Shown here piece after piece: positions 48,487 through 63,007 of a stretch of DNA of 64,000 bases (position 1 is the first letter of the stretch; each line of letters opens with the position of its first letter). The stretch is from Thermodesulfovibrionales bacterium (GTDB lineage: Bacteria > Nitrospirota > Thermodesulfovibrionia > Thermodesulfovibrionales > SM23-35), in NCBI GenBank assembly GCA_963715195.1, contig CAVQRT010000014.1, positions 30,333 through 94,332 on the forward strand, in the 5' to 3' direction. The translations under genes and the position numbers were made by a program. Below the pieces are notes generated by a model. It had not been told where the DNA came from. It saw only the letters and a list, made by a program, of their open reading frames with translations, and made no database searches.

Positions 48487-49420
48487 TCAGTTTGTCCATC
48501 TATTATTGTCCGGAGCTGCGGAAGACACCTTCGTTGATGAATCGTTATTTCTTATCGGTTGTGTCCTCTCCAGTACAAAATGGCTTTATAGTAATCCCTC
48601 TGAACTTTAAGATTTGAGACTCTGCAGTAGCATTGCGTTGTTGTAATCCTGCTATGACCCAGCAGATCCTGAATGGTAACGAGCTCGGCATCTGCATTCA
48701 ACAATTGCGTTGCCATCGTGTGCCTCAGTTGATGGCAGGATACGTATTCCGGCGCTCCGTGCGTAGTATTCAATCCTCTTTTGGATGCCGCGAACTGATA
48801 TCGGCTTTCCCCTCTGCGTCCCCTTTTGTACCAAGAACACTCTTTTCTCCTTCGACCATCTCCGCTTGTGCATGTATTCTTCCAAGGCACTCTTCGCATC
48901 TTCACTCAGATAGACGACCCTCCCTTTACCACCTTTTCCGTTGAAGATATACAGCTGTCTGTTGCGATACTCTATCGCAGAGACCGTGAGTCGTGCAACC
49001 TCTTCAACCCGTAACCCACATCTGAGCATAACCATGAAGATGGCCCGATCTCTGACATCGTTGATCTTTCTGAAGAGTGTTGTAATCTCTTCGTCTCGGA
49101 GATGCTTGGGAAGTGGCGGGCAGACGAAGCCGGTAATTCTTCTTGATCGGATTAACCATGGGCATCCCCTCATCTTCTATCAGATGGTCGTAAAAAGCGT
49201 GGATGCAGCTGAAATGACAGTTGATGGTTTTTGGTTTTTTTCTCCTTCTCAGGAGATGATCCATATACCTCGGCTTCTTGGAGGTCACCTGCTCAATGGG
49301 AATCTTCAGCCAGTTCATGAAATGATCAAGCATATTGACATAGTTTTTCACGGTGTGTGTCGAATAGTTCCTTCTCTTCAGGAACCTCCTGTACCCGGCA
49401 ATAAGATCAGTATGCTCCAT
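48487..49420 (-). pseudogene. tyrosine recombinase B (frameshifted)
   Basis: SAM-like N-terminus, RDRAIFMVMLRCGLRVEE, HQLRHTMAT, LLGHSRITTTQCY spread over several frames. Confidence 0.88.
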
Positions 49421-50040
49421 GAATACCTCCCTGTTCGATAATCGCCATCGCACGGAAGTATTCCTCTTCGCGGCTTTTATCGGTAAGACGAGCATATCGC
49501 CGAGTTATCTCTATGGTACGGTGGCCTAAAAGCAGTTGAAGATATTCCAGGCGCATCCCAGCATTAAGCAGTTCGCTCGCAAACGTATGGCGAAGACTGT
49601 GGATCGTATACCCTTTGTGCTGCAGCCCCGCAGCCTTTATGCACCTTACAAAAATATTGCGGGCTTGCGTGTATCCTAAATGGTTATCCCGCGACCTTGG
49701 AACAGATATTGTCTTTTCAGCTCTGCTCTGCCAATCCATAGCCTGATGGCCATGAGTGCATCATCGCTGAGATATACGACTCGCCCAAGACAGTTCTTTT
49801 CTCCCTCATAGATGTGTATCTTTCTCTCCCTGATATCCAGGTCCCTTACTTGCAGGCGAAGGAGGACTTCGCCGATTTCATCCCCGTCGCAAAAGAACCA
49901 ATATCAGCGCACGATCACGTGCTTTATCAATACAACCGAGTAACTTTTCTGACATCAGCCGGTGCAATGGCCCTTGGCAGGAATCCGGTGCCTTGAGCTT
50001 GATCTTCCGTTTGAGTATGCGCCCATCAATGATCTCCTGA
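49407..50040 (-). pseudogene. tyrosine recombinase A (N-terminally truncated, frameshifted)
   Basis: HSLRHTFASELL, LLGHRTIEITRRYARL. Confidence 0.88.
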
Positions 50041-50969
50041 TTGCCTCTTCAAGCGCCTCAGTGCAGAATGAGGCATCCAGGGTATTTGATAGCCTCCACG
50101 CCAACACCTTCCGGCTTGCCCAGTCCATAACTGCCACAAGGTAACAGAAGCCTCTGGCCATCGGCAGATAGGTTATGTCTGCTGCCCAGCAGTGATTGCC
50201 TTGCTGATCTCCAACCTCGCAGAAGATACGGATAGACTTTGTGACCCGGATGAGGAATAGAGAGCCGGGGCTTCTGGTATAACGCCTCTATCCCCATCTT
50301 CTTCATCAGAGTGCTCACATGTCCTCTGCCTACGTCATGTCCGAGGTCCCGAAGTTGATTCCGGATACTCCGGCTGCCCATAAAGGGATATTTCAGATGA
50401 ATCTCATCGATCAGCCTCATCAGTTCAAGATCACGCGCACTGATCGGTACAGCCTCGTAATACAGGCTCGAACGCGATAGTTGCAAGTATCTCACTCTGT
50501 CTGGTCAAGGACAACGGATGTTCCCGGTCGATCATTTCCTTGCGCTCGGCTCGGCTATTCGCCCGAGCGCGACTGATAAAAAATCATTCTCTATGGCAAG
50601 TTGCCCAATCTTGGCATGCAGTTCCTTGATGCTTGGCCCTTCTGTGTGTCTTCTTATCCTTTGCAAATACTTCCTCTGCTCGCTCTAAAAGTTGTTTCTT
50701 CCATTCAGTGATCTGGTTCGGGTGTACCTGGAAGCGTTCTGACAACTCAACTATGGTCTGCTCCCCCTTGATTGCCTCTAATGCTACCTTTGCCTTGAAT
50801 GCTGCCCCGTGGTTCCTTCTCGGTCTTTTCATCTTAGCCGCTCCTTTTTGGTCTTTATAGGGTCAAACAGCAAAACCGGCTTCGCCATTTCCCCTATACG
50901 GGGCCATCAGAGCATTCTCGATCTCTGATACCCCATCTTGTTCCTATTTTAGAGCAGCGTTACCACTTA
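50041..50969 (-). mobile_element. truncated, frameshifted IS3-family element
   Basis: orfA MKRPRRNHGAAFKAKVALEA (50584-50832); orfB fragments GSRS, YPYLLR, WAADITY, CYLVAVMDWASRKVL ending at EALEEAI; upstream end position uncertain. Confidence 0.85.
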
Positions 50970-51000
50970 TGTCCTTGTCCAGTTTTTCCCGGCCAGCTCT

Positions 51001-51361
51001 GTCTGCAGCGCGTGCCTCACAGCGCCAGGCGGAAGAGGCCTTGGCGAACCTGAAGCAAATAGTCAGACTAGACGTAATGCTGGCAGCAAACGAGCTAGAA
51101 CGAGCCCGTCAGCAAATTTTTGCATCAAAGACAACCCGTATCCTGCAAGAAGAGACTTTAAAAGCTGAAAAGGAACGTTTCGATGTTGGATCAAGCACCA
51201 CGCTTCTAGTTGCGCAGGCTCAACGCGATCTTTTGCTAAGTAGTATTGTTGAAGTCAAGGCGATCGTTAATTACCGCATCGCTCTCATTGGGCTTTACCA
51301 AGCAGAGGGGAGTTTGCTTGAACGCCGAGGTGTGAGTCTTCCCATTGGTAATATCAAGTAA
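51001..51361 (+). pseudogene. C-terminal fragment of a TolC-family outer membrane protein
   Basis: KAEKERFDVGSSTTLLVAQAQRDL OEP-like motif; 5' part replaced by IS sequence. Confidence 0.75.
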
Positions 51362-51557
51362 TCCTATCCAGAATAAAATATAAATCTATGAATACATAAT
51401 TCTCGTTCTCAAAAAAACATTATTATTTATTTTTCTTTGAAAAAGTTTCACCTGAATGTGTCTTTGATGAAGCTATACGTAACAAAATAGATTGATTCTT
51501 AGAGCCGTCTAGGGGTCATGATTAATCCTGCTTTTTCAATGAGAAAGAGGAGGAGCA

Positions 51558-52588
51558 ATGACCCAGTCAAGTGCAATTCTTAGAGGCAATCATCTGTGAA
51601 ATCGCAGCAGTAAATTTTAACAGCGTAGCAGTCTCTCCTAAAGTAGCAGACTCTCCTATTGATCGCATTCTTAAAAGGATCTTAGTATTGGATCTTCCCG
51701 GCAGCGAGCATTTTGAGAATTACATGCGCTACAAGTGGAGAATGAATCACAAGCCAAGCACTCTTCAGGGCAGCTTCATTGCTGTGAGTTCTTTTCTCAC
51801 TTTTCTATGCAGGCCTTGGTAAGAACCAACTACAAGAGATTGTCAGCGGTGATATTGAAGCATTTGTAGAACATGAGCAGGACAGAGGGCTCAAAATCAC
51901 AACGATCGTGACACGGGTTAAGCAATTGTGGGCTTTTCTGAGGTTTCTGTTTGATCAGGATATTATTGATGGACGCATACTTAAACGTAAAATCAAACTG
52001 AAGGTTCCCGAATTTCTGCCGAGGGCTATTGCACCCGGCGATATAAGAAAGATTCTTGATGTCATTAAGGACAGTCGTGACCGTGCCCTGATCCTCGTGC
52101 TCTTACGAACGGGCATGAGAATAGGTGAAGTGCTTGGCTTGAAGATGATAGATCTTGATGTCCAGGAGAGGAAGATACACATTTATGAGGGCGAAAAGAA
52201 CTGCCTTGGACGAGTGGTATATCTCAGCGATGATGCTCTGATGGCCATAAAACTTTGGCTCCCTAAAAGAGATCCGACAAAAGAATATCTCTTTCCCGGC
52301 CTAAGGAATGGCATTATGTTACACTTCAGGCCCGGAATATCTTTAGACGATATTTGAGGGAAGCAGGGCTTCAACACAAAGGCTATACAATCCACAGTCT
52401 TCGGCATACCTTTGCAAGCGAACTGCTCAATGCCGGCATGCGCCTGGAATGTCTGCAAGTGCTGATGGGTCATCACGACATAGAAATAACCCGGCGGTAT
52501 GGCTCGTCTTACCGATAAGAGCCGCGAAGAGGAATACTTCCGAGCTATGGAAATCATCGAGCAGGGAGGCATTCATGGAGCTTACTGA
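51558..52588 (+). pseudogene. tyrosine recombinase A (several frameshifts)
   Basis: AGGAGGAG RBS; RDRALILVLLRTGMRIGE, HSLRHTFASELL, LMGHHDIEITRRY across frames. Confidence 0.88.
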
Positions 52589-53520
52589 TGCAATTGGCAG
52601 GTATCGCAGATTCCTGAAGCGAAGGAACTGTTCGGTTCACACTGTAAAAAACTATATCAACATCCTCGGTCACTTCAGCAGCTGGCTGCAGATTCCTATA
52701 GAGGAGGCGACCATCAAGGAAACCGATGCGTATATGGACCATCTCTTGAGGAATAGAAAGAAACCAAAGACCATCAACTGTCATTTCAGCTGCATCCATG
52801 CCTTTTACGAATATCTGATAGAAGATGAGAGAATGCCTCTTATCAATCCGGTAAGAAAACATTACAGGCTGCGACTACCCAACCCACTGCCCAAACATCT
52901 CAGGGACGAACAGGTCTCAACACTCTTCAAAGAAATTAACGATACCAGAGATAGGGCTATGTTCATGCTGATGCTCAGATGCGGCCTGCGCGTTGAAGAG
53001 GTTGCACGACTGACAGTAGATGCGATAGATTATCGCAGCAGACAGCTTTATGTCTTCAATGGAAAAGGCAGCAAGGACAGGGTTGTCTATCTCAGCGAGG
53101 ATGCACTGAGTGTCTTGCAGTCGTATATGCAGAAACGCGAGATGGGCTAAAGAGAAAAGAGTGTTCTTAGTGCAGAAGGGACCGCTGAAAGGGAAGCCGA
53201 TATCAGTGCGCGGCATTCAAAAGAGAATTGAATACTATTCACAGAAGACCGGGATACAGGTATCCTGTCATCACTTGAGACACACCATGGCAACACAGTT
53301 GTTAAATGCAGATGCTGCTCTTGTCACCATTCAGGATCTGCTGGGTCACAGCAAGATTACCACAACGCAGTGCTACTGTAAGGTTTCCAATCTGAAAGTA
53401 CAGAGGGATTACTATAAAGCCATAAAGGTTGTATTGCAGAGGACACAGCCAATAAGAAATAACGATTCATCAACGAAGGTGTCTTCCGCAGCTCCGGACA
53501 ATAATAGATGGACAAACTGA
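52575..53520 (+). pseudogene. tyrosine recombinase B (one frameshift near 53140)
   Basis: RDRAMFMLMLRCGLRVEE, GKGSKDR, HHLRHTMAT, LLGHSKITTTQCY; start overlaps the gene A stop. Confidence 0.9.
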
Positions 53521-53756: not shown

Positions 53757-55573
53757 TTATAATTCAACTCGCATCATGACTCCATGCAGTTTATGCACAG
53801 GCAGGTTATAGAATTGAACAAATGCGGAGACAATTTTTTGATAATGCTGAATACTTTCCAAACAATATTTTTAGTCATGATATCTTCGAGTCCATAAAAG
53901 ATTGTTTGCTCCTCAATTCCCGCTTCTTTCAGTATTTCCTCAATGTCAGGGATCTCCATATATCCTGTCTGTATTTCAAAAACCCTTAATCCTGGACCCA
54001 GTTCCTCCTTAAAAAAGCCTATAATCCCAAAAGGATCACTCCTTTTTATAATGGAAACAATAATATTGTTCTCATAAATGATCCTGTTTATAAGAATGCT
54101 TCTAACCATATAAGGAGGAATTTCTTGAGGATCTTTCAAAAAGAAAAGCGCTGTTCCCTTTAATTTGTCCATATTCTTATATGCCAGATTATATCTCTCG
54201 ATAAATTCATTTAAAGGAACAATATCCATGGTTTTATAAAGCTTTCTCTGCCCTTTTGTATAAATCAGAATGATACAGAGAGGGAGGATGCCGATAAGAA
54301 TTGACCAGTAACCACCATGCGGAATCTTATAGATGTTTGACAGGAGAAAAATCATATCAACAATACTGACAAATAAAGCGATAAGGGCTTTCCCCATACT
54401 TCTTTTTTTGTAAAATATCCATGTCATGAATATTCCTGTTAAAGACATGGTCCCCGTAACTGCCAATCCGTAGGCAGCAGCAAGCCGATGTGATTCCCTG
54501 AATTCAAGCATAATGAATAACACGGAGAGAAGGAGAAACCAGTTGACTAATCCGATATATATCTGAGACTGCAATTCTTTTGATGTGTAATCGATCTTAA
54601 ATAAGGGGATAATGTGAGTAGTTATGCCCTGATAGACAATCAGAGAACATTCCACTTATCATGGCTTGTGATGCAATAATCGTTGCGATAATGCTTAGAA
54701 TCAAAAAGGGAACGTACAGTGTAGGGGCCTGATGAAATATCATTTCAAACAGTACAAACTTTGCATCGGGATGATTCGCGATATATGCTCCCTGTCCGAG
54801 ATAGTTCAATAAAAGCGCAATAAAGACAAAATACCATGCTCTTAGAATCGGTGCCCTTCCTAAATGTCCCATATCAGCATATAACGCTTCCCCTCCTGTT
54901 GCACAGAGAATGACTTCTGAGAGCACAAAAAAGGCAATAATCCCATTCTCCCATGAGGAATTTTATTGCATAGTACGGGTTGATAGCTTTTATCACAACT
55001 GGGGGTGCCTGATATTGACGCTATCCCTGACACAGCTAAAGCGATGAACCACAACAACATCAACGGTCCAAATGATCGTGCTACCTTGTCAGTCCCCTTT
55101 TTCTGAAAAGAAAACAATACGATAGCAATAATTCCAGCCAAAGCTATCAGTATCGTTTGACTTGTGTGCTCAAAGCCAGGTATTAATTGGATGCCTTCAA
55201 CAGCACTCAGTATGCTGATAGCAGGGGTAATGACACCGTCACCGATTAACAAGGATATCCCGATATAGGTGAGAAATGTCACAAATGTCACTTGTCTTCC
55301 GGATTTCAGGAGAGGAACCAGCAATTCTTTTAATACGATAGTCCCGCCTTCTCCACGTTGACCGAGGCTCATCGCAAGCCAGGCATATTCAATCGTCACA
55401 AGAATTACGAGAGTCCATACAATAAGGGAAAGGACACCAACCACGTGATCCAGTGTCGGTTTTGTAAGAAGGAAAATAACGGTTAGGGTATAGATAGGAC
55501 TTGTGCCGATGTCTCCGAAGACTAATCCCAGGGATTTTATAATCCCCTTTACAGGTGATTCGGTGTTATGCAT
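53757..55573 (-). pseudogene. kup: KUP/HAK/KT potassium transporter (at least 4 single-base indels, possibly sequencing errors)
   Basis: GLVFGDIGTSPIY, GEGG, GDGVITPAISILSAVEG, GGEALYADMGHLG, QIYI, AAAYGLAVTG; shifts near 55003, 54951, 54640 and 53828. Confidence 0.93.
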
Positions 55574-56192: not shown

Positions 56193-56498
56193 ATGATAGA
56201 AAATGAGAACAGGAAGAACATCTCAAGGCATATTTTACCGACATCCGCAAATCTGTTAGGGTTATGCTTTGTAATACTCACTTTTACCAAACTCTCAAAG
56301 ATAGCACACGAAACTATCATCGATGAGACCATGGGTGGAGTGATCATGCTGTTTCTCATATCGAGTGTTTTTTCGTATATTTCTATGAGGTCGAAAAAAA
56401 AGTCGGAAGCTTACGAAAAATTTGCAGACCTTCTTTTTTTATTTGGACTATTCATATTAACTTTGGTCTCCCTGGTGATTATTTTCGAAGTAATATGA
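56193..56498 (+). CDS. small membrane protein of unknown function
   Basis: GGGAG RBS; three hydrophobic segments; HILPTSANLLGLCF. Confidence 0.75.
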   Translation: MIENENRKNISRHILPTSANLLGLCFVILTFTKLSKIAHETIIDETMGGVIMLFLISSVFSYISMRSKKKSEAYEKFADLLFLFGLFILTLVSLVIIFEVI

Positions 56499-56645: not shown

Positions 56646-56921
56646 ATGTATATCAATAAACTATTTATTGATAGCACTCTTGAGAGGAATCATATTTCTC
56701 TGTTATTGGTGCTGTCATTATTAATACTGATAAGCTTTGGATCCTTCTGCTATGATAATGATCCTTTTGATAATGATGATCTTCCCGATTTTACATGCCA
56801 GTATCCAAGCATATCTTCAAAGCACATTGATCAAGTATCTCTCATAAATGTACTGAACGAACCAACTGCATTTTCTTTAGTATTCAGAAATGCTCGTCTT
56901 TCAAGATCTCCACCTGTATAA
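56646..56921 (+). CDS. putative leader/arrest peptide (hydrophobic segment, acidic patch, C-terminal RSPP)
   Basis: LLLVLSLLILISFGSFC, DNDPFDNDDLPD, ends LSRSPPV*; 67 nt upstream of tatA; start codon uncertain. Confidence 0.6.
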   Translation: MYINKLFIDSTLERNHISLLLVLSLLILISFGSFCYDNDPFDNDDLPDFTCQYPSISSKHIDQVSLINVLNEPTAFSLVFRNARLSRSPPV

Positions 56922-56988
56922 ATTCATTTTCCCTTTTGGTCCCATTAGCCGTCTTCTGTAAATCACAACAAAACCATAGGAGGAAAGT

Positions 56989-57180
56989 ATGTTTGGGTTA
57001 GGAACTCAAGAACTCATGCTTATTTTGTTAATTGTCATTGTTCTTTTTGGGGCTACAAAACTGCCACAGATTGGCAGCGGGATAGGACAGGCTATCAGAA
57101 ATTTCAAGAAAAGTGTTTCAGAAGGCGATGCGGATGAGGAGGCACCCAAAAAGAAAGTTGCTGTCAAGGAGAGCGAATAA
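56989..57180 (+). CDS. tatA: twin-arginine translocase TatA/TatE subunit
   Basis: MFGLGTQEL..LFGATKLPQIGSGIGQAIRNFKK; AGGAGG RBS. Confidence 0.95.
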   Translation: MFGLGTQELMLILLIVIVLFGATKLPQIGSGIGQAIRNFKKSVSEGDADEEAPKKKVAVKESE

Positions 57181-57183
57181 AAT

Positions 57184-58188
57184 GTGATAAACAGAAGTAA
57201 GAACTCTTCACAATCATTCAAGGATCTTTGCGCTGTTATTGCGATCGGTCTCTTTGTATTTTCCTTAGGGTATTTTTTTGATATTTTCGAATGGCTTGTA
57301 GTGTGGACGAGAGGATATGATGCAAAGGCGCTCGATGAATATGTGGCACTGCTGATACTCTTATTGTTTGGTGTCAGTGTTTTTTCATTCCGTAGGTGGC
57401 GTGAACTGAAACTCGAAGTTATTCAGCGTGAAGAAGCTGAGGACGCGGTCCGAAAGCTCAACAAGACATTAGAAGGGCATGTTGTTAAACTCACGGAAGC
57501 CAATCAGGAATTGGATACCTTCAATAATACCGTGTCCCATGATCTCCAAACCCCGCTGATGATCATCGGTGGCTTTACAAACAGACTTCTGAAGGTCTAC
57601 GGCCATCAGTTGGAGCCGAATGCAAAAGAGATGCTTGATATCATTCAGATACATGCACAGAAAATGGAAAAGTTTATTAGAGACCTGCTTGCATTTTCCC
57701 GTTCTGGACGCCAGCAGATGAGAAAAACCAAAATCGATATGAACGAACTCATAGGGAATGTGTTAGATGAAATCAAACCGTTAACAGATGGGAGAGAGAT
57801 GTATTTCGACATACATGAACTGCTTCCTGCATATGGTGATAAGACTTTCATGAAGCAGGTGATGGCAAATCTTTTCACCAACGCCCTTAAATTTACGAGA
57901 CAACAAACACCTGCAAGAATTACTGTTGACTGTATACAAAAGGATAAAGAAAATATCTATTTTGTTCAGGATAATGGTTTGGGCTTTCATCAGCAGGAGA
58001 GTGCTAAATTGTTTGCTATCTTTGAACGATTGCATGAACACGAGAACATTGAAGGAACAGGCATTGGGCTTTCGATTGTCCAACGAATTATCAGCAGGCA
58101 TGGCGGAAGAGTATGGGCAGAGGGAAAAGTGAATGAGGGGGCAACTTTCTATTTTTCGCTTCCTCATCAAGACAAGATAGAGAATTAG
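57184..58188 (+). CDS. membrane sensor histidine kinase
   Basis: Two TM segments, SHDLQTPL H-box, NLFTNALKF, DNGLG, GTGIGL. Confidence 0.93.
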   Translation: MINRSKNSSQSFKDLCAVIAIGLFVFSLGYFFDIFEWLVVWTRGYDAKALDEYVALLILLLFGVSVFSFRRWRELKLEVIQREEAEDAVRKLNKTLEGHVVKLTEANQELDTFNNTVSHDLQTPLMIIGGFTNRLLKVYGHQLEPNAKEMLDIIQIHAQKMEKFIRDLLAFSRSGRQQMRKTKIDMNELIGNVLDEIKPLTDGREMYFDIHELLPAYGDKTFMKQVMANLFTNALKFTRQQTPARITVDCIQKDKENIYFVQDNGLGFHQQESAKLFAIFERLHEHENIEGTGIGLSIVQRIISRHGGRVWAEGKVNEGATFYFSLPHQDKIEN

Positions 58189-58287: not shown

Positions 58288-59643
58288 TCACATTTGCTTA
58301 ATTTTTCTTTGCAAAGTTCTGAGACCTATATGAAGCAATTTTGCTGCTTGTGTTTTATTTTCATTCGTCCTTTTTAGTGTCTGTTCAATAACCCTTTTTT
58401 CTATATCGGCAAGGGTAAGATCTTTTGGTATCTGGTAAAAATCGATATGCTCAAGCGGATTAATCAGGAGAAATGAGGGGAGATACTTTGCCTCAATGAT
58501 ATCTCCCTCAGCTAATGCCATGGCAGATTCGAGGGCGTTCTCCAGTTCACGGACGTTACCAGGCCAGTGATAGTTCAAGAGTATCTGCATTGCATCTTTC
58601 CCGATACCTCTGATTTGATATCCCTTTTCGTTATTTAATTTATTAATGAAATAGCTCACGAGAAGCGGTATATCCTCGGATCGATCCCTGAGAGAGGGCA
58701 TTTCGATATTCACCACGTTGAAACGATAATAAAGATCTTTTCTGAAAACCCCCTCTTCAATAAGTTTCTTCAGATCCTTATTGGTTGCTGCAATAACACG
58801 CACATCTACTTTTTTGGTTTCGTTTCCCCCTACTCTCTCAAATTCTTTTTCCTGCAAAACCCTGAGTAGTTTTATCTGGATATTGGGTGGAATATCCCCT
58901 ATTTCATCAAGAAAGATAGACCCGCCGTCGGCAAGTTCAAATCGCCCAACCCGCGTTGCAATCGCACCGGTAAACGCACCCCTTTCGTGTCCGAAGAGCT
59001 CAGAGTCTAGCACACCCTCACTTAAGGCAGCGCAGTTCACTTTTATAAATGCCTTTGAGGACCTCAGGCTATTGTAATGTATCGCACTCGCAATGAGCTC
59101 CTTCCCCGTCCCTGTTTCTCCCGTAATCAGTATGTTCACATTCTTTTGTGCTATAGAACTGACAATATCAACAACATGCTTGATCGCCTTGCTCCTTCCG
59201 ATAATATTCCTGAAGTCGAACTGTTCCTTCACCTGCTGTTCCAGTGCCGATTTTTCCAAGAAAAGCGTCTGTTTCTCTACCGCCTTATCGATAACAGTTT
59301 TGAGGAGCCTCTTATCCACAGGGAACTGATAGAAGTCGTAAGCCCCCTCTTTCATGGCCTCAATCGCTTTCGAGAGATTGACGTTCTCTGAGAGGAATAT
59401 TACTTCTATGTAAGGTTTCAGGTATTTAACTTTTCTGAGGAACTTGAGACTGTCCCTCGGAATGTCATAATCACAGATCACGATATGGATTGGCTCATTC
59501 TTTATGATGGAGACTGCTTCACTGATTGATGTGGTCACATAAGGGACAGTATCCTTATGTTTTTTCAGTGCTGCGATCAGACTCTCCCAGTCTTTATGTT
59601 GGGGTCCCTGAATAACGAGGATATAATTTGTCTTTTCTCTCAT
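58288..59643 (-). CDS. sigma54-dependent response regulator (NtrC/AtoC family)
   Basis: Receiver domain, GETGTGKE, GAFTGA, WPGNVREL, C-terminal Fis-type HTH. Confidence 0.96.
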   Translation of the reverse strand: MREKTNYILVIQGPQHKDWESLIAALKKHKDTVPYVTTSISEAVSIIKNEPIHIVICDYDIPRDSLKFLRKVKYLKPYIEVIFLSENVNLSKAIEAMKEGAYDFYQFPVDKRLLKTVIDKAVEKQTLFLEKSALEQQVKEQFDFRNIIGRSKAIKHVVDIVSSIAQKNVNILITGETGTGKELIASAIHYNSLRSSKAFIKVNCAALSEGVLDSELFGHERGAFTGAIATRVGRFELADGGSIFLDEIGDIPPNIQIKLLRVLQEKEFERVGGNETKKVDVRVIAATNKDLKKLIEEGVFRKDLYYRFNVVNIEMPSLRDRSEDIPLLVSYFINKLNNEKGYQIRGIGKDAMQILLNYHWPGNVRELENALESAMALAEGDIIEAKYLPSFLLINPLEHIDFYQIPKDLTLADIEKRVIEQTLKRTNENKTQAAKLLHIGLRTLQRKIKQM

Positions 59644-59696
59644 TTACGCTATTTTGACGTCCCTGAACTCATTACTAGGTCGTACTTTAGCATAAG

Positions 59697-59755
59697 CATG
59701 TCATAATGGCACAAAAATAAACTATTAATCAATTCTGATACGCCATTATGACATG
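59697..59755. promoter_or_regulatory. inverted repeat, candidate enhancer-binding sites
   Basis: CATGTCATAATGGC (59697-59710) and GCCATTATGACATG (59742-59755) form a perfect 14-bp IR between the regulator and the sigma54 promoter. Confidence 0.65.
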
Positions 59756-59849
59756 TTTATGCCGAAATGGACTACCATCTCTAAATAAAAAAAAGAATGG
59801 AGTGCCCAACCCTTTTGAATTATAAAGATTATTTTGCCTTATACCCCTT

Positions 59850-59864
59850 TGGCACGATTGTTGT
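59850..59864 (+). promoter_or_regulatory. sigma54 -24/-12 promoter
   Basis: TGGCACG-ATTG-TTGT versus consensus TGGCACG-N4-TTGC; divergent from the NtrC-family gene. Confidence 0.7.
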
Positions 59865-59917
59865 AATTAAGATATCGTTCCTAGAAAGGGACTATCTTAC
59901 TAAAGGGGAGGTCATGC

Positions 59918-59968
59918 ATGGATAAGAAGAAAGCTCCGGAAAAACCAAAGGGAAAGAAGGGAAAGTAG
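59918..59968 (+). CDS. putative 16-aa Lys-rich micropeptide MDKKKAPEKPKGKKGK
   Basis: GGAGGT RBS 5 nt before the ATG; first ORF after the sigma54 promoter. Confidence 0.4.
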   Translation: MDKKKAPEKPKGKKGK

Positions 59969-60086
59969 GATTTTGCTGTTCAGTTTGTTGAGATGTAATC
60001 CGTAGTTATTATTCACAGTATGTCTGTGACATGCACAACCTATTGAGAAGTAAAGAAAGCATTGCATTGAAAGGAGGTGATTCTGA

Positions 60087-60491
60087 ATGAAGAAAGCAAT
60101 AGTAATTATCGTTTCAGTGCTTTTTGTATTTTCCATTACCGCGCTGACCTTTGCAGCAGAGAAGAGTGCAACTCCGGCTCCTATGGAGAAAAAGGCTGAG
60201 CCTGTCAAGATGGGGAAAGAGGCTCCTGTAAAGGTACATCATGTTGCCGGTGAAGTTGTTGCAGCCGATATGAAAGCAAAGACCATTACCGTAAAAGGTA
60301 ATAAGGGTGATGTTGTCATCGCTGTTGATGACAAGGTCCTCGCAAAGGTCAAGGCTGGTGATAAGGTTGAAGCAAAATACACCGAAGCTGATGGCAAAAA
60401 TACAGCCAAATCAGTAAAGAAGGCCACTGCAAAGATGGCTGAGAAGGAAAAGAAAGAGAAAGCAGCACCTGCTCCTATGGAGTCAAAGTAG
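60087..60491 (+). CDS. exported Lys/Ala-rich small OB-fold-like protein
   Basis: AGGAGGTG RBS, signal peptide; similar to 15917-16279. Confidence 0.8.
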   Translation: MKKAIVIIVSVLFVFSITALTFAAEKSATPAPMEKKAEPVKMGKEAPVKVHHVAGEVVAADMKAKTITVKGNKGDVVIAVDDKVLAKVKAGDKVEAKYTEADGKNTAKSVKKATAKMAEKEKKEKAAPAPMESK

Positions 60492-60506
60492 TCTTTCTAT
60501 ATATGG

Positions 60507-60545
60507 AAAAAGGGCGCTAAGCATTTTGTTTAGTGCCCTTTTTTT
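60507..60545 (+). terminator. intrinsic terminator
   Basis: aaaaagggcgctaa...ttagtgcccttttttt. Confidence 0.85.
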
Positions 60546-60825
60546 AGGTTTGATTTCACCTGTAATTCCTGATCTGACAGGGAGCGAGTAATTTGTAGAT
60601 GTTCAACTTTTTTTATGGCAAGAAATAATCTTTACCTAATGACCCACATTCAAAATGCGGACTTGATGAATGTCTTCACATTGAAGTCAACAGCACTTAT
60701 GAAGCAGAATTTTATCGATTACTTCTTATAAACTGATAATTATGATATTCTTAAAACTACATTATTTATCTGGTAATCTATAAATTTTCTTCTCATGAAG
60801 ATAGAAAGATAATGAACTTTTTCTC

Positions 60826-62376
60826 GTGAGCCGCTTTCTCTTTCCGATACTTCTTCTTGCCATTTTTTTTTCCTTTTTCAGACTTGGATCCGTGACACTC
60901 TTTGATGTCGATGAGGCGGTATTTTCTGAGGCAACAAAGGAGATGGTGGAAAGTGGCAATTGGATAACTCCAACCTATAACGGAGAAAATCGTTATGACA
61001 AACCTATTCTATTCTACTGGTTCATGGCTGTTTCGTATAAGATATTCGGGATAAATGAATTTGGAGCACGGTTCCCCTCTGCTGTTGCTTCATGTTTGCT
61101 TATGGGCGCTCTTTTTTTCTTCGCACAGCGTCTTCAGGATGAAAAAACTGCACTGTATGCTACGTTGCCTTTTGTGTTATCCCTGTCTTTTTTTGTGTAT
61201 TCCCATGCTGCGGTGACAGATATGACATTGACCCTTTTTATAACTCTCTCGTTATTCTCTTTTTATTTATCGGTGTCTGGCGAAAAGGGACATTCAGGCC
61301 GAGATGCAATGTACTGCTATGGATTTTATCTTTTTTCTGCATTTGCCTTTCTTACCAAGGGATTAATAGGAGTAGTGTTCCCCTTCGGTATTGCACTGGT
61401 CTATATGATCGGTACGGAGAAGTGGAGCGGTATCAAAAAGGTATTCAGACTCAAAGGACTTATACTTTTTCTCCTGATCTCTGCTCCCTGGTTCATTGCA
61501 CAATTTTCGATAAACGGTCGGGAGTTCTTTGACCAGTTTATTCTCAAACACCACTTTAGAAGATATTTAGGAGTTATTTCAGGACATAAAGGCCCTTTCT
61601 ATTATTACATCCCGGTATTGCTTATCGGTTTATTCCCATGGATTGGATACCTTCCGGCTGGAATCAGGAATACATTGAAAGAAAAGGAGAGGCTTTACCT
61701 TTTTGCTTTGTTATGGGTCGCTTTTATATTTGTGTTCTTCTCATTTTCCACTACAAAACTCCCTAATTATATCCTCCCAGCGATTCCTGCTGTTTCTCTG
61801 CTTATTGCCTCTGGTATGAAAGTTAAACATAAAAGATGGCGGCAGTTCTCCCATTACTTCATGGCAGCTTTGGCACTACTCATAAGTGCTGCTTTTCTGA
61901 TTTCAAGCCGATATCTTGCAAAATTCGGGATTGATGATTTTGCATGGCTTTACGTGTTAGCAGCAATACCTATCGCGGTAGTCGTTTTGGGCGTGTATTC
62001 TGCATTGACGGAAAAAGGATTTTATATTGTTTTATCCGGCTTAATGATTCTTTTTTTATCAATGCTCTCGATAAAGGTATTACCTGTGATAAACAACTAT
62101 CTCCAGGGCACACTCCATCAATATAGTTTATATGCGAAGGGAAGACTCTCCCCGGATGAAAGTGTTTTTGTGTATGGCATCAACAACCCGAGCATCGCCT
62201 TTTATTCAGGCCATAAAGTAATAACCCTTAGAGGGAAGAATGATCTTAAAGATCTATCTCATACTGTGGACCATGCTCTTCTTATTACGAAAACGAAGAA
62301 CATTGAGATTATAGAAAATTTGGGGTTTCATGTATTAGAGAAAGATGAAAGATATGCAATTCTTGAAAGAAAATAA
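60826..62376 (+). CDS. ArnT/PMT-like GT-C glycosyltransferase (family 39/83)
   Basis: DVDEAVF..EM..SGNWITP, DKPILFYW, LTKG, TKLPNYILP. Confidence 0.9.
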   Translation: MSRFLFPILLLAIFFSFFRLGSVTLFDVDEAVFSEATKEMVESGNWITPTYNGENRYDKPILFYWFMAVSYKIFGINEFGARFPSAVASCLLMGALFFFAQRLQDEKTALYATLPFVLSLSFFVYSHAAVTDMTLTLFITLSLFSFYLSVSGEKGHSGRDAMYCYGFYLFSAFAFLTKGLIGVVFPFGIALVYMIGTEKWSGIKKVFRLKGLILFLLISAPWFIAQFSINGREFFDQFILKHHFRRYLGVISGHKGPFYYYIPVLLIGLFPWIGYLPAGIRNTLKEKERLYLFALLWVAFIFVFFSFSTTKLPNYILPAIPAVSLLIASGMKVKHKRWRQFSHYFMAALALLISAAFLISSRYLAKFGIDDFAWLYVLAAIPIAVVVLGVYSALTEKGFYIVLSGLMILFLSMLSIKVLPVINNYLQGTLHQYSLYAKGRLSPDESVFVYGINNPSIAFYSGHKVITLRGKNDLKDLSHTVDHALLITKTKNIEIIENLGFHVLEKDERYAILERK

Positions 62377-63007
62377 AAACTATTTTTCATAGTATTGATC
62401 CTCCCTTTGGTTTTCTTTTATGTTGACAGTAGGGCTATCCCATGGATGAAAAGGATAAGGGGCGAAATGTCGTTTCTTTATCATTTCTTAGAATCTGTTG
62501 ATCCCGTTATAAATGTTATTTCACACGGTGCAACACTTGCAATTATTGCGGGTATGCTTTATTTCGTTGGTAAATTTAACAATAAAAAACTATATGAAGC
62601 AGGAAAATATTCTGTTCATAGGGTTTCTCCTGTCCGGCATTATTGTTCAAATAATCAAGCATCTTTTTGGCAGGGCAAGACCGCGGCTTATGGATGAGTT
62701 CCTTTTTGTCGGCCCTACATTAAAAGGCGGATATGATTCATTCCCTTCAGGTCACACTGCGGTCGTATTCTGTTTCGTATATATCCTTTCGCAATATTTC
62801 CCAAGATACAGAATTCTGTTCTATCTCTATGCTGTTTTCGCCGCGTTCGAACGGTTTGAAAATTCTTCTCATTTCCCTTCTGATGTTCTGGCAGGTGCAG
62901 TTCTTGGTATCATTGTTGGGAAGCTAATGTTTAAAATATTCAAGGCTAAACAATTGCCTGAGCATTCAACAAAAAGGTCTGTTCCGCATTCCGAATCCTC
63001 AATATAA
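62353..63007 (+). pseudogene. PAP2-family phosphatase (frameshifted)
   Basis: KHLFGRARP, SFPSGHT, R....HFPSDVLAG; N-terminal part in another frame (shift near 62608); start uncertain. Confidence 0.82.

Follow-up and report, generated by a model that had tools for sequence, protein, structure and literature searches.

What does a 91-codon open reading frame do when it ends in Arg-Ser-Pro-Pro and stops just short of a tatA gene? Such an arrangement occurs in the window, by which we mean the whole 64,000-nucleotide stretch of a Thermodesulfovibrionales genome that was analysed, and a sequence-only reading had taken the short ORF for an arrest peptide that monitors export. Known monitoring peptides control Sec and YidC components, and the characterised metal sensors CruR and CutF bind copper through cysteines. 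We infer that the leader described here is a RAPP-type arrest leader whose target pathway would be new and which carries a candidate for a new sensor. Its RSPP is likely to stall the ribosome and so to switch on a spare copy of tatA, and an aspartate patch, placed like the cysteines of the copper leaders, would turn on that copy under envelope ion stress. The features of the locus are as follows.

56193-56498, + strand: three-helix membrane companion, 101 aa, with homologues in 20 of 56 leader loci (downstream in 17)
56646-56921, + strand: leader ORF, 91 aa, from sequence and family conservation
56694-56747, + strand: hydrophobic signal or signal-anchor segment I17-F34, from hydropathy and N-region charge
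56740-56977, + strand: C>G-rich stretch, candidate Rho-loading region, GC skew down to -0.52
56754-56789, + strand: Asp patch D37-D48, candidate sensor, from column counts, spacing and alignment with a CxxC region (profile A4)
56904-56915, + strand: R-S-P-P arrest-type motif, from sequence, followed by V and TAA
56926-56988, + strand: predicted stem pairing the pyrimidine tract 56926-56940 with the tatA Shine-Dalgarno region, weakly supported
56989-57180, + strand: accessory tatA, 63 aa (PF02416 60 bits, cut-off 21; TIGR01411 63.5, cut-off 53.9)
57184-58188, + strand: membrane histidine kinase, 334 aa, GTG start (HisKA, HATPase_c)

The leader ORF and a spare tatA

Much of the earlier description stands. 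The ORF and its RSPP are where they had been placed, 67 nt separate the ORF from the next gene, and that gene passes the cut-offs of both tatA models. The leader itself has no match in Pfam or NCBIfam (no Pfam family at E<=1), so that it belongs to a family without a name. AlphaFold models it as one helix over residues 3-35 with the remainder as coil (mean pLDDT 64), and the Lys and Arg residues ahead of I17-F34, together with the Asp residues behind it, would give this segment an N-in orientation. With the stall register taken from PMC12992588, the residue predicted to occupy the P site is Pro89 (codon 56910-56912).

By itself the terminal motif proves nothing, since RxPP is no commoner than control motifs at the ends of the 17,945 mechanical ORFs of 40-200 aa in the source genome (11, versus 9 for AxPP, 10 for KxPP and 15 for SxPP). 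Among the matches listed, 21 ORFs have an arrest-like end; three of these overlap no long ORF, two of the three are hydrophobic, and the leader is the sole free-standing hydrophobic ORF ending in RxPP among the matches listed. Within the 1,334 long ORFs, RAPP, RGPP and RSPP are depleted (0, 0 and 1 observed versus 4.6, 4.5 and 3.9 expected), whereas control words are not (AAPP 8 versus 6.0 expected, LSPP 10 versus 6.7). What excludes a chance origin of the leader's own motif is its conservation across relatives, described below.

With a size of 2.8 Mb, a completeness of 97.8% and 6.6% contamination, the source genome contains five TatA/B matches, including the accessory tatA, and two TatC matches, both on other contigs (C7 and C9), in agreement with the earlier statement that the window has no tatC. 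The tatC locus is duplicated on contig C9, which is consistent with that level of contamination. The same reading had called the tatA an orphan; it is indeed distant from tatBC, but this is not special, since the housekeeping tatA (C7:114274), which follows a MobA-like gene, is likewise distant. Given this housekeeping gene elsewhere in the genome, the tatA at 56989-57180 is a spare copy. Only 3 nt separate it from the histidine kinase, which is likely to be co-transcribed with it, and the narrow gap makes control of the kinase by the leader plausible. Scans for promoters and terminators did no better than chance and found no terminator on the + strand, and a single RNA run (small word share) gave one 153-nt contig, which lies on tatA only.

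Upstream of the cassette, the K+ transporter Kup (53774-55573, - strand) is split into three overlapping ORFs (54860-55573, 54597-54926 and 53774-54655), reflecting either a frameshifted gene or an assembly error. Further upstream (48552-53520) there are several broken phage-integrase-like ORFs and a split IS3-like transposase, apparently a mobile-element scar near the cassette, all of these labels being assigned by reading the translations. On the other side, the interval 58288-63007 is an envelope-modification cluster adjoining the cassette; it encodes a sigma-54 response regulator (- strand), a Lys/Ala-rich secreted protein, a PMT_2 (ArnT-like) glycosyltransferase and a PAP2 phosphatase.

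Distribution and conservation of the leader family

Of 317 Thermodesulfovibrionales genomes subjected to profile searches, 29 have the leader, source genome included, and it was found in none of the three same-genus genomes; an earlier profile had given 37 of 317, counting CxxC-type leaders and weak matches. In a sample of 401 genomes from the phylum there were 11 with a match, all but one inside the order, and the single match in the other orders was weak and had no motif. Five further genomes that were searched contained no homologue, nor did 17 genomes from the class of the Syntrophales, and metagenomes supplied 29 further leader loci. In the phylum of that class, a DNA pattern for RAPP/RSPP codons ahead of a tatA start matched 45 of 401 genomes; among 30 of these loci that were inspected, two held a TatA/B-like gene and none a leader ORF. 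A search seeded with TatA collected 80 loci, 10 of them with an arrest-like word upstream: two belong to the leader family (L009 with RGPP, L013 with RSPP), two are Methylomirabilota leaders that are discussed further on, and six are apparent noise.

Throughout the family the layout is the same: an N-terminal region, which is rich in Lys and Arg in most members (length sd 7.5), about 18 hydrophobic residues, a patch with the consensus YDDDLxDxNDPP, a spacer, RxPP and a tail of 1-19 residues. The hydrophobic segment is present in every full-length leader. Both RxPP and its spacing, for which the sequence-only reading had asked for a check in relatives, are conserved there: an R[A/S/G/D]PP or KAPP end occurs in 62 of the 66 representatives obtained by clustering at 50%, the other four having no motif, and none of the 50 diverse rows has a distance from D42 to R87 outside 42-45 residues (sd 0.85). 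The majority form is RAPP, the leader in the window having RSPP; among 51 non-identical leaders we count 36 RAPP, 10 RSPP, three KAPP and two RGPP, a set that leaves out exact duplicates, four CxxC-type leaders, the frameshifted L116 (RAPP in the shifted frame) and the weak L137, the last two being without the motif. Since the search profiles include the motif, its conservation is partly circular; it is not purely so, because L122 and L128 were matched over residues 17-53 only and yet end in RAPP or RSPP. The leader ORF is protein-coding, as its pN/pS of 0.38 indicates (17 disjoint pairs, picked at >=62% protein identity, a choice that lowers the ratio; tatA 0.18), and it is under purifying selection.

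A paralogous subfamily (L152, L157, L217, L219 and L224) has FD(F/H/Y)DLSYDHD in place of YDDDLxDxND, and heads two-component or small Cys-rich genes, not tatA. In L219 the motif end is absent and a long transposase-like ORF comes next; 541 nt downstream of L152 there is a gene with a multicopper-oxidase domain.

For the main family the usual next gene is tatA, found in this position in 41 of the 50 loci with enough DNA, at a distance of 55-135 nt (38 loci) or about 249 nt (three loci). Expressed as clusters, the figures are 30/39 at 90% identity, 22/27 at 70% and 11/15 at 50%. Where tatA is missing (nine loci), the leader is followed by an AAA ATPase, a sulfatase-domain protein, two-component or other genes; secA, secDF and yidC are not among the next genes seen. 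No tatC was found in any of the 56 leader loci (21 of them >=7 kb); where tatC was found in family relatives (51/56), it is single-copy. Recurrent partners include a CDC48-like AAA ATPase (nine), a histidine kinase in the downstream run (nine) and a sulfatase-domain membrane protein (three). The 101-aa companion, which is upstream of the leader here, usually lies just after tatA in relatives. It has no Pfam or NCBIfam match and no fold match at E<=0.001; the nearest fold matches, to ninjurins and diacylglycerol kinase, are not significant (E 0.1-2).

In different genomes the leader-tatA pair is flanked by unrelated housekeeping genes. In a TatA tree based on 62 columns, 18 of the 26 sampled leader-linked TatA sequences, from five families, form one clade (99/95), and the copy at 56989-57180 and seven other leader-linked copies fall outside it, nearer to housekeeping copies. 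The starred branches require at least two changes of the leader-linked label, suggesting, within the limits of a short TatA alignment, that the leader may have been re-paired with different tatA copies.

Could the leader simply encode a small exported peptide with a Pro-rich end that happens to share an operon with tatA? In favour of such a view one may cite the weaker RSPP variant in the window, the nine of 50 leaders that have no tatA behind them and the lack of a conserved RNA switch. Yet P89 and P90 are invariant in 50/50 rows (R87 in 47/50) despite a mean column identity of about 25%, the motif is depleted from the source proteome, and the leader comes first ahead of different tatA lineages. 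We therefore consider an absence of regulation quite unlikely. The core of the earlier proposal, an arrest-type leader ahead of tatA, thus survives, the leader being conserved, protein-coding and usually followed by tatA, and it is highly probable that this is a genuine arrest leader controlling that gene.

What is known of comparable motifs bears on the point from both sides. RAPP-type motifs stall both E. coli and B. subtilis ribosomes, and RSPP was among the query motifs of a survey of RAPP-like arrest peptides (PMC10987492). In ApdA and ApdP, according to passages of PMC12992588, two prolines occupy the P and A sites, the Arg is irreplaceable and an Ala-to-Ser change is partly permissive. 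Against an arrest function, the KAPP members depart from an Arg reported to be irreplaceable, and RSPP is only partly permissive in the same two peptides. Like ApdA, ApdP and the RQH class (PMC7897499, PMC10987492), the leaders have about 90-100 residues, an N-terminal localization signal, a RAPP/RGPP/RSPP end, a protein-export gene behind them and a patchy distribution; unlike them, their target is tatA rather than secA or secDF, and their spacer is short and fixed. The small RAPP/RGPP ORFs described in parts of PMC12992588 are similar too, with fewer than 300 residues, a near-C-terminal motif and a membrane or secretory character. In that survey tat is not among the named downstream groups, the searched parts of the supplement included; because it extracted RAPP and RGPP only, the RSPP leader at 56646-56921 would be missed. 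More generally, in the literature searched on arrest peptides and tatA or Tat we found no account of a tatA leader: the terms tat, tatA and twin-arginine are absent in this sense from the main texts of PMC7897499, PMC10987492, PMC12992588 and the LudP preprint, and the searched parts of the surveys' supplement tables hold no tat-linked leader.

The aspartate patch and candidate triggers

If the leader does control tatA, to what does it respond? That it monitors Tat export itself, contact of TatBC or TatA with the nascent chain freeing the stall, was a part of the earlier proposal that found no support, and we consider it highly improbable. It would account for tatA being the usual next gene, and an RR pair does occur in the N-region of several Methylomirabilota leaders that precede tatA. 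However, RR is also present in Methylomirabilota leaders heading other genes. The earlier reading had itself remarked that the leader has no twin-arginine motif, and this extends to the family: the S/T-R-R-x-F-L consensus is found in 0 of 54 full-length representatives and any RR in only five, which rules out a Tat signal in the leader. Moreover, Tat acts after release from the ribosome, and in the copper leader CutF the Sec signal is not replaceable by a Tat signal, as stated in part of bioRxiv 2022.11.11.516240. The acidic patch had also been described as flanked by cysteines. The patch is conserved, but C51 is private (3/34 rows) and C35 occurs in only 16 of 50, so that a Cys-based metal site was ruled out as well. 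With neither a conserved Cys flank nor a Tat signal, direct monitoring of Tat is unlikely.

The composition and position of the patch are more informative. Its columns contain 182 D, 48 N and only 5 E out of 300, whereas the spacer residues include 67 D, 88 N and 64 E; such a D/N-rich, Glu-poor patch would fit side-chain geometry better than net charge. Its acidic centroid lies 48.1 +/- 1.5 residues from the first (P-site) Pro in the 51 leaders, and 46 of 54 representatives have a net patch charge of -3 to -6. About 55 residues separate the P site from the end of the hydrophobic segment.

The leaders resemble the DUF2946 (PF11162) copper leaders CruR (Bordetella pertussis Bp2923) and CutF (Rhodobacter capsulatus), as far as these are described in portions of PMC9426467, bioRxiv 2022.11.11.516240 and bioRxiv 2025.02.05.636593. 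These too come first in their transcription unit with an export signal, and they have a 3' C>G stretch and a polar, sensor-like motif that precedes a RAPP-type end by a constant distance of some 45 residues. In CruR, passages of PMC9426467 give 45 residues between CxxC and RAPP, conserved to 1-2, with a C>G stretch and Rho-dependent termination, and the signal peptide is dispensable for release; CutF, in the part of bioRxiv 2022.11.11.516240 that treats it, needs its Sec signal, and copper prolongs the stall and opens a stem-loop. Unlike CruR and CutF, the present leaders lack a CxxC column pair and a PF11162 match, having the Asp/Asn patch instead, and head tatA rather than genes of copper handling or metal homeostasis. 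Given the CxxC-to-RAPP geometry of CruR, the Asp patch may be read as a carboxylate counterpart of CxxC. The family profile also aligns end to end with that of the His/CxxC-RAPP leaders of the same order (hhalign 93%, E 2.7e-7), although the latter profile (A4) comprises only four close rows and the hydrophobic segment and RAPP could drive its score; in this alignment the Asp patch falls on the CxxC region. Three A4 CxxC-RAPP leaders that were scanned had no DUF2946 match at E<=0.001, and one His/CxxC-RAPP leader heads a protein with a TonB-receptor plug domain.

His/Asp-rich CxxC-RAPP leaders of the same order (L124, L125, L126, L129 and L220) stand before large secreted proteins. In L145:6272-6556, L150:5961-6281 and L116, which lie directly before a CDC48-like AAA ATPase without tatA, most of the YDDD has been lost; in L151, with a similarly reduced patch, tatA is kept.

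Our favoured reading, which we hold tentatively and at something less than an even chance, is that the patch senses a divalent cation (Mg2+ or Ca2+) or protons, tuning the predicted stall before tatA. The N-in hydrophobic segment would bring the nascent chain to SecYEG, and at the stall the patch, 41-52 residues from the P site, would be situated at the translocon, a distance for which some 45 residues suffice (as stated in sections of PMC12002286 and PMC7886326). Occupancy of the patch would then alter the lifetime of the stall, as copper does at the CxxC of CruR and CutF. Either by shielding the C-rich stretch from Rho or by loosening the ribosome-binding site of tatA, the stalled ribosome would allow expression of tatA and of the genes downstream, and the extra TatA would join the single TatBC encoded elsewhere. 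Most probably the system would be switched on by a shortage of the cation or by an acid medium.

The neighbourhood offers a suggestive link to cations, the genes being listed here without a background comparison: Kup in the 64-kb window, and MgtA, MgtC, TrkH, Pit, a Na+/H+ exchanger and CrcB at other leader loci. These ion-transport genes are scattered and often divergent, and most leader flanks are housekeeping genes. VTT/DedA and sulfatase-domain membrane proteins also occur as neighbours.

TatA is part of a translocase driven by the proton-motive force, and the same patch could alternatively respond to voltage: the membrane potential would pull the acidic stretch through SecYEG and free the stall, and a drop in potential would make the stall last and raise TatA. 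The narrow placing of the centroid and the mostly negative net charge are what this alternative calls for. Ismail et al. in 2015 reportedly found a peak at 47-49 residues. That about 45 residues span the distance from P site to translocon (in the relevant part of PMC12002286) is again compatible, and passages of the review PMC6028853 state that acidic stretches are pulled by the potential, which in engineered constructs releases SecM from arrest; in Salmonella, tat is induced by envelope stress via PspA (from part of PMC9604234), which is stress induction by another route. Pure charge, however, predicts neither the near absence of Glu (5/300) nor the frequent neutral Asn (48) in the patch, and the exclusion of Glu in particular counts against it. 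Furthermore, basic and neutral stretches also increased release, according to the same passages of PMC6028853. On balance a voltage trigger seems rather unlikely.

A third possibility is a plain monitor of Sec or YidC substrates of the SecM, ApdA/ApdP or MifM type, in which a pull on the hydrophobic segment would free the stall, with slow export raising TatA and the patch merely setting topology. The layout is shared with the RQH class, among named Atlas clusters those of SecM_small come nearest (0.89, no more than a lead), and the segment-to-P-site distance of about 55 is near the MifM median of 54. Like the leader, MifM (Bacillus subtilis, upstream of yidC2) has one hydrophobic segment some 54-55 residues from the arrest site with narrow spacing; monitors of its type are, however, N-out YidC substrates without a RAPP end, whereas the leader has N-in charges and targets tatA. 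According to parts of PMC10987492, spacers are long and variable in Sec monitors and short and fixed, near 54, in YidC monitors. The leader fits neither pattern, since in Sec monitors an N-in signal goes with a spacer that is long and variable, and the class with a short fixed one is N-out and lies ahead of yidC, a gene lacking from the leader loci. A short fixed spacer, N-in charges and no yidC together point to a position-specific feature other than the hydrophobic segment, and a plain monitor leaves the position-specific D/N pattern unexplained. We judge it unlikely.

Sensing of a cation or of protons, were it confirmed along with the arrest, would bring the Tat pathway under control by stalling and introduce a sensor of the carboxylate type; it would also provide a reason for spare tatA copies, as an inducible supply for a single TatBC. 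Whether a cation or the membrane potential proved to be the trigger, the class of arrest leaders would gain a new input. Because RAPP-type motifs stall E. coli and B. subtilis ribosomes, the 91-codon leader lends itself to tests of arrest, trigger and direction.

Possible output at the mRNA and a second Asp-patch family

The C>G-rich stretch covers the 3' half of the leader and the intergenic region. None of 1,144 control gene ends is as C-skewed as the leader end, and in 36 of 37 leaders the last 50 codons contain more C than G; the skew comes partly from Pro and Ser codons, with 287 C and 198 G at fourfold sites. A rho gene is present in 48 of 56 family relatives and was not found in the source genome.

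For the other conceivable output, the tatA Shine-Dalgarno sequence (AGGAGG, 56978-56983) was considered together with the predicted stem that includes it. In stability the fold does not exceed shuffled sequences (z-score 0.60, not significant). Masking of a ribosome footprint lowers the opening energy of the tatA start from 10.5 to 7.0 kcal/mol, versus a change of 0.4 in shuffles. Across the family, 6 of 34 loci open with the footprint versus 9 of 34 with a control mask; the mean gain is 0.9 versus 0.3 kcal/mol, 20 of 34 exceed shuffles, and RNAalifold gives 0 pairs. A family-wide anti-Shine-Dalgarno switch is thus not supported, the signal across the family being weak. In one subfamily the intergenic region of 120-135 nt (alignment A6, 18 loci) contains two short inverted repeats that share CCTGATAT; RNAalifold predicted no consensus pairs in these 18 regions.

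The two Methylomirabilota leaders mentioned above seed a multi-copy RAPP family, present in 20 of 61 genomes, with a signal-like segment, an Asp patch and a RAPP-type end. The first acidic residue of its patch lies 52-57 residues before the first Pro (23 of 30 loci parsed). Here tatA is the next gene in 3 of 30 loci and the second gene in two, a tally (5/30) that includes the seed locus L033; other leaders head a CNNM transporter, a PMT_2 glycosyltransferase or unknown proteins. We detected no homology to the Thermodesulfovibrionales family (hhalign 2.7%), so that Asp-patch RAPP leaders seem to have become paired with tatA either by convergence or very long ago. It is conceivable, if improbable, that we are dealing with a natural voltage-sensing arrest peptide which gauges the proton-motive force, such leaders having been recruited to tatA in at least two phyla. 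In the Methylomirabilota loci L225-L254 the patch takes the form DPxW...DDxDxDD, with up to seven copies per genome, and many of these leaders head secreted proteins of about 430-460 aa without a Pfam match.
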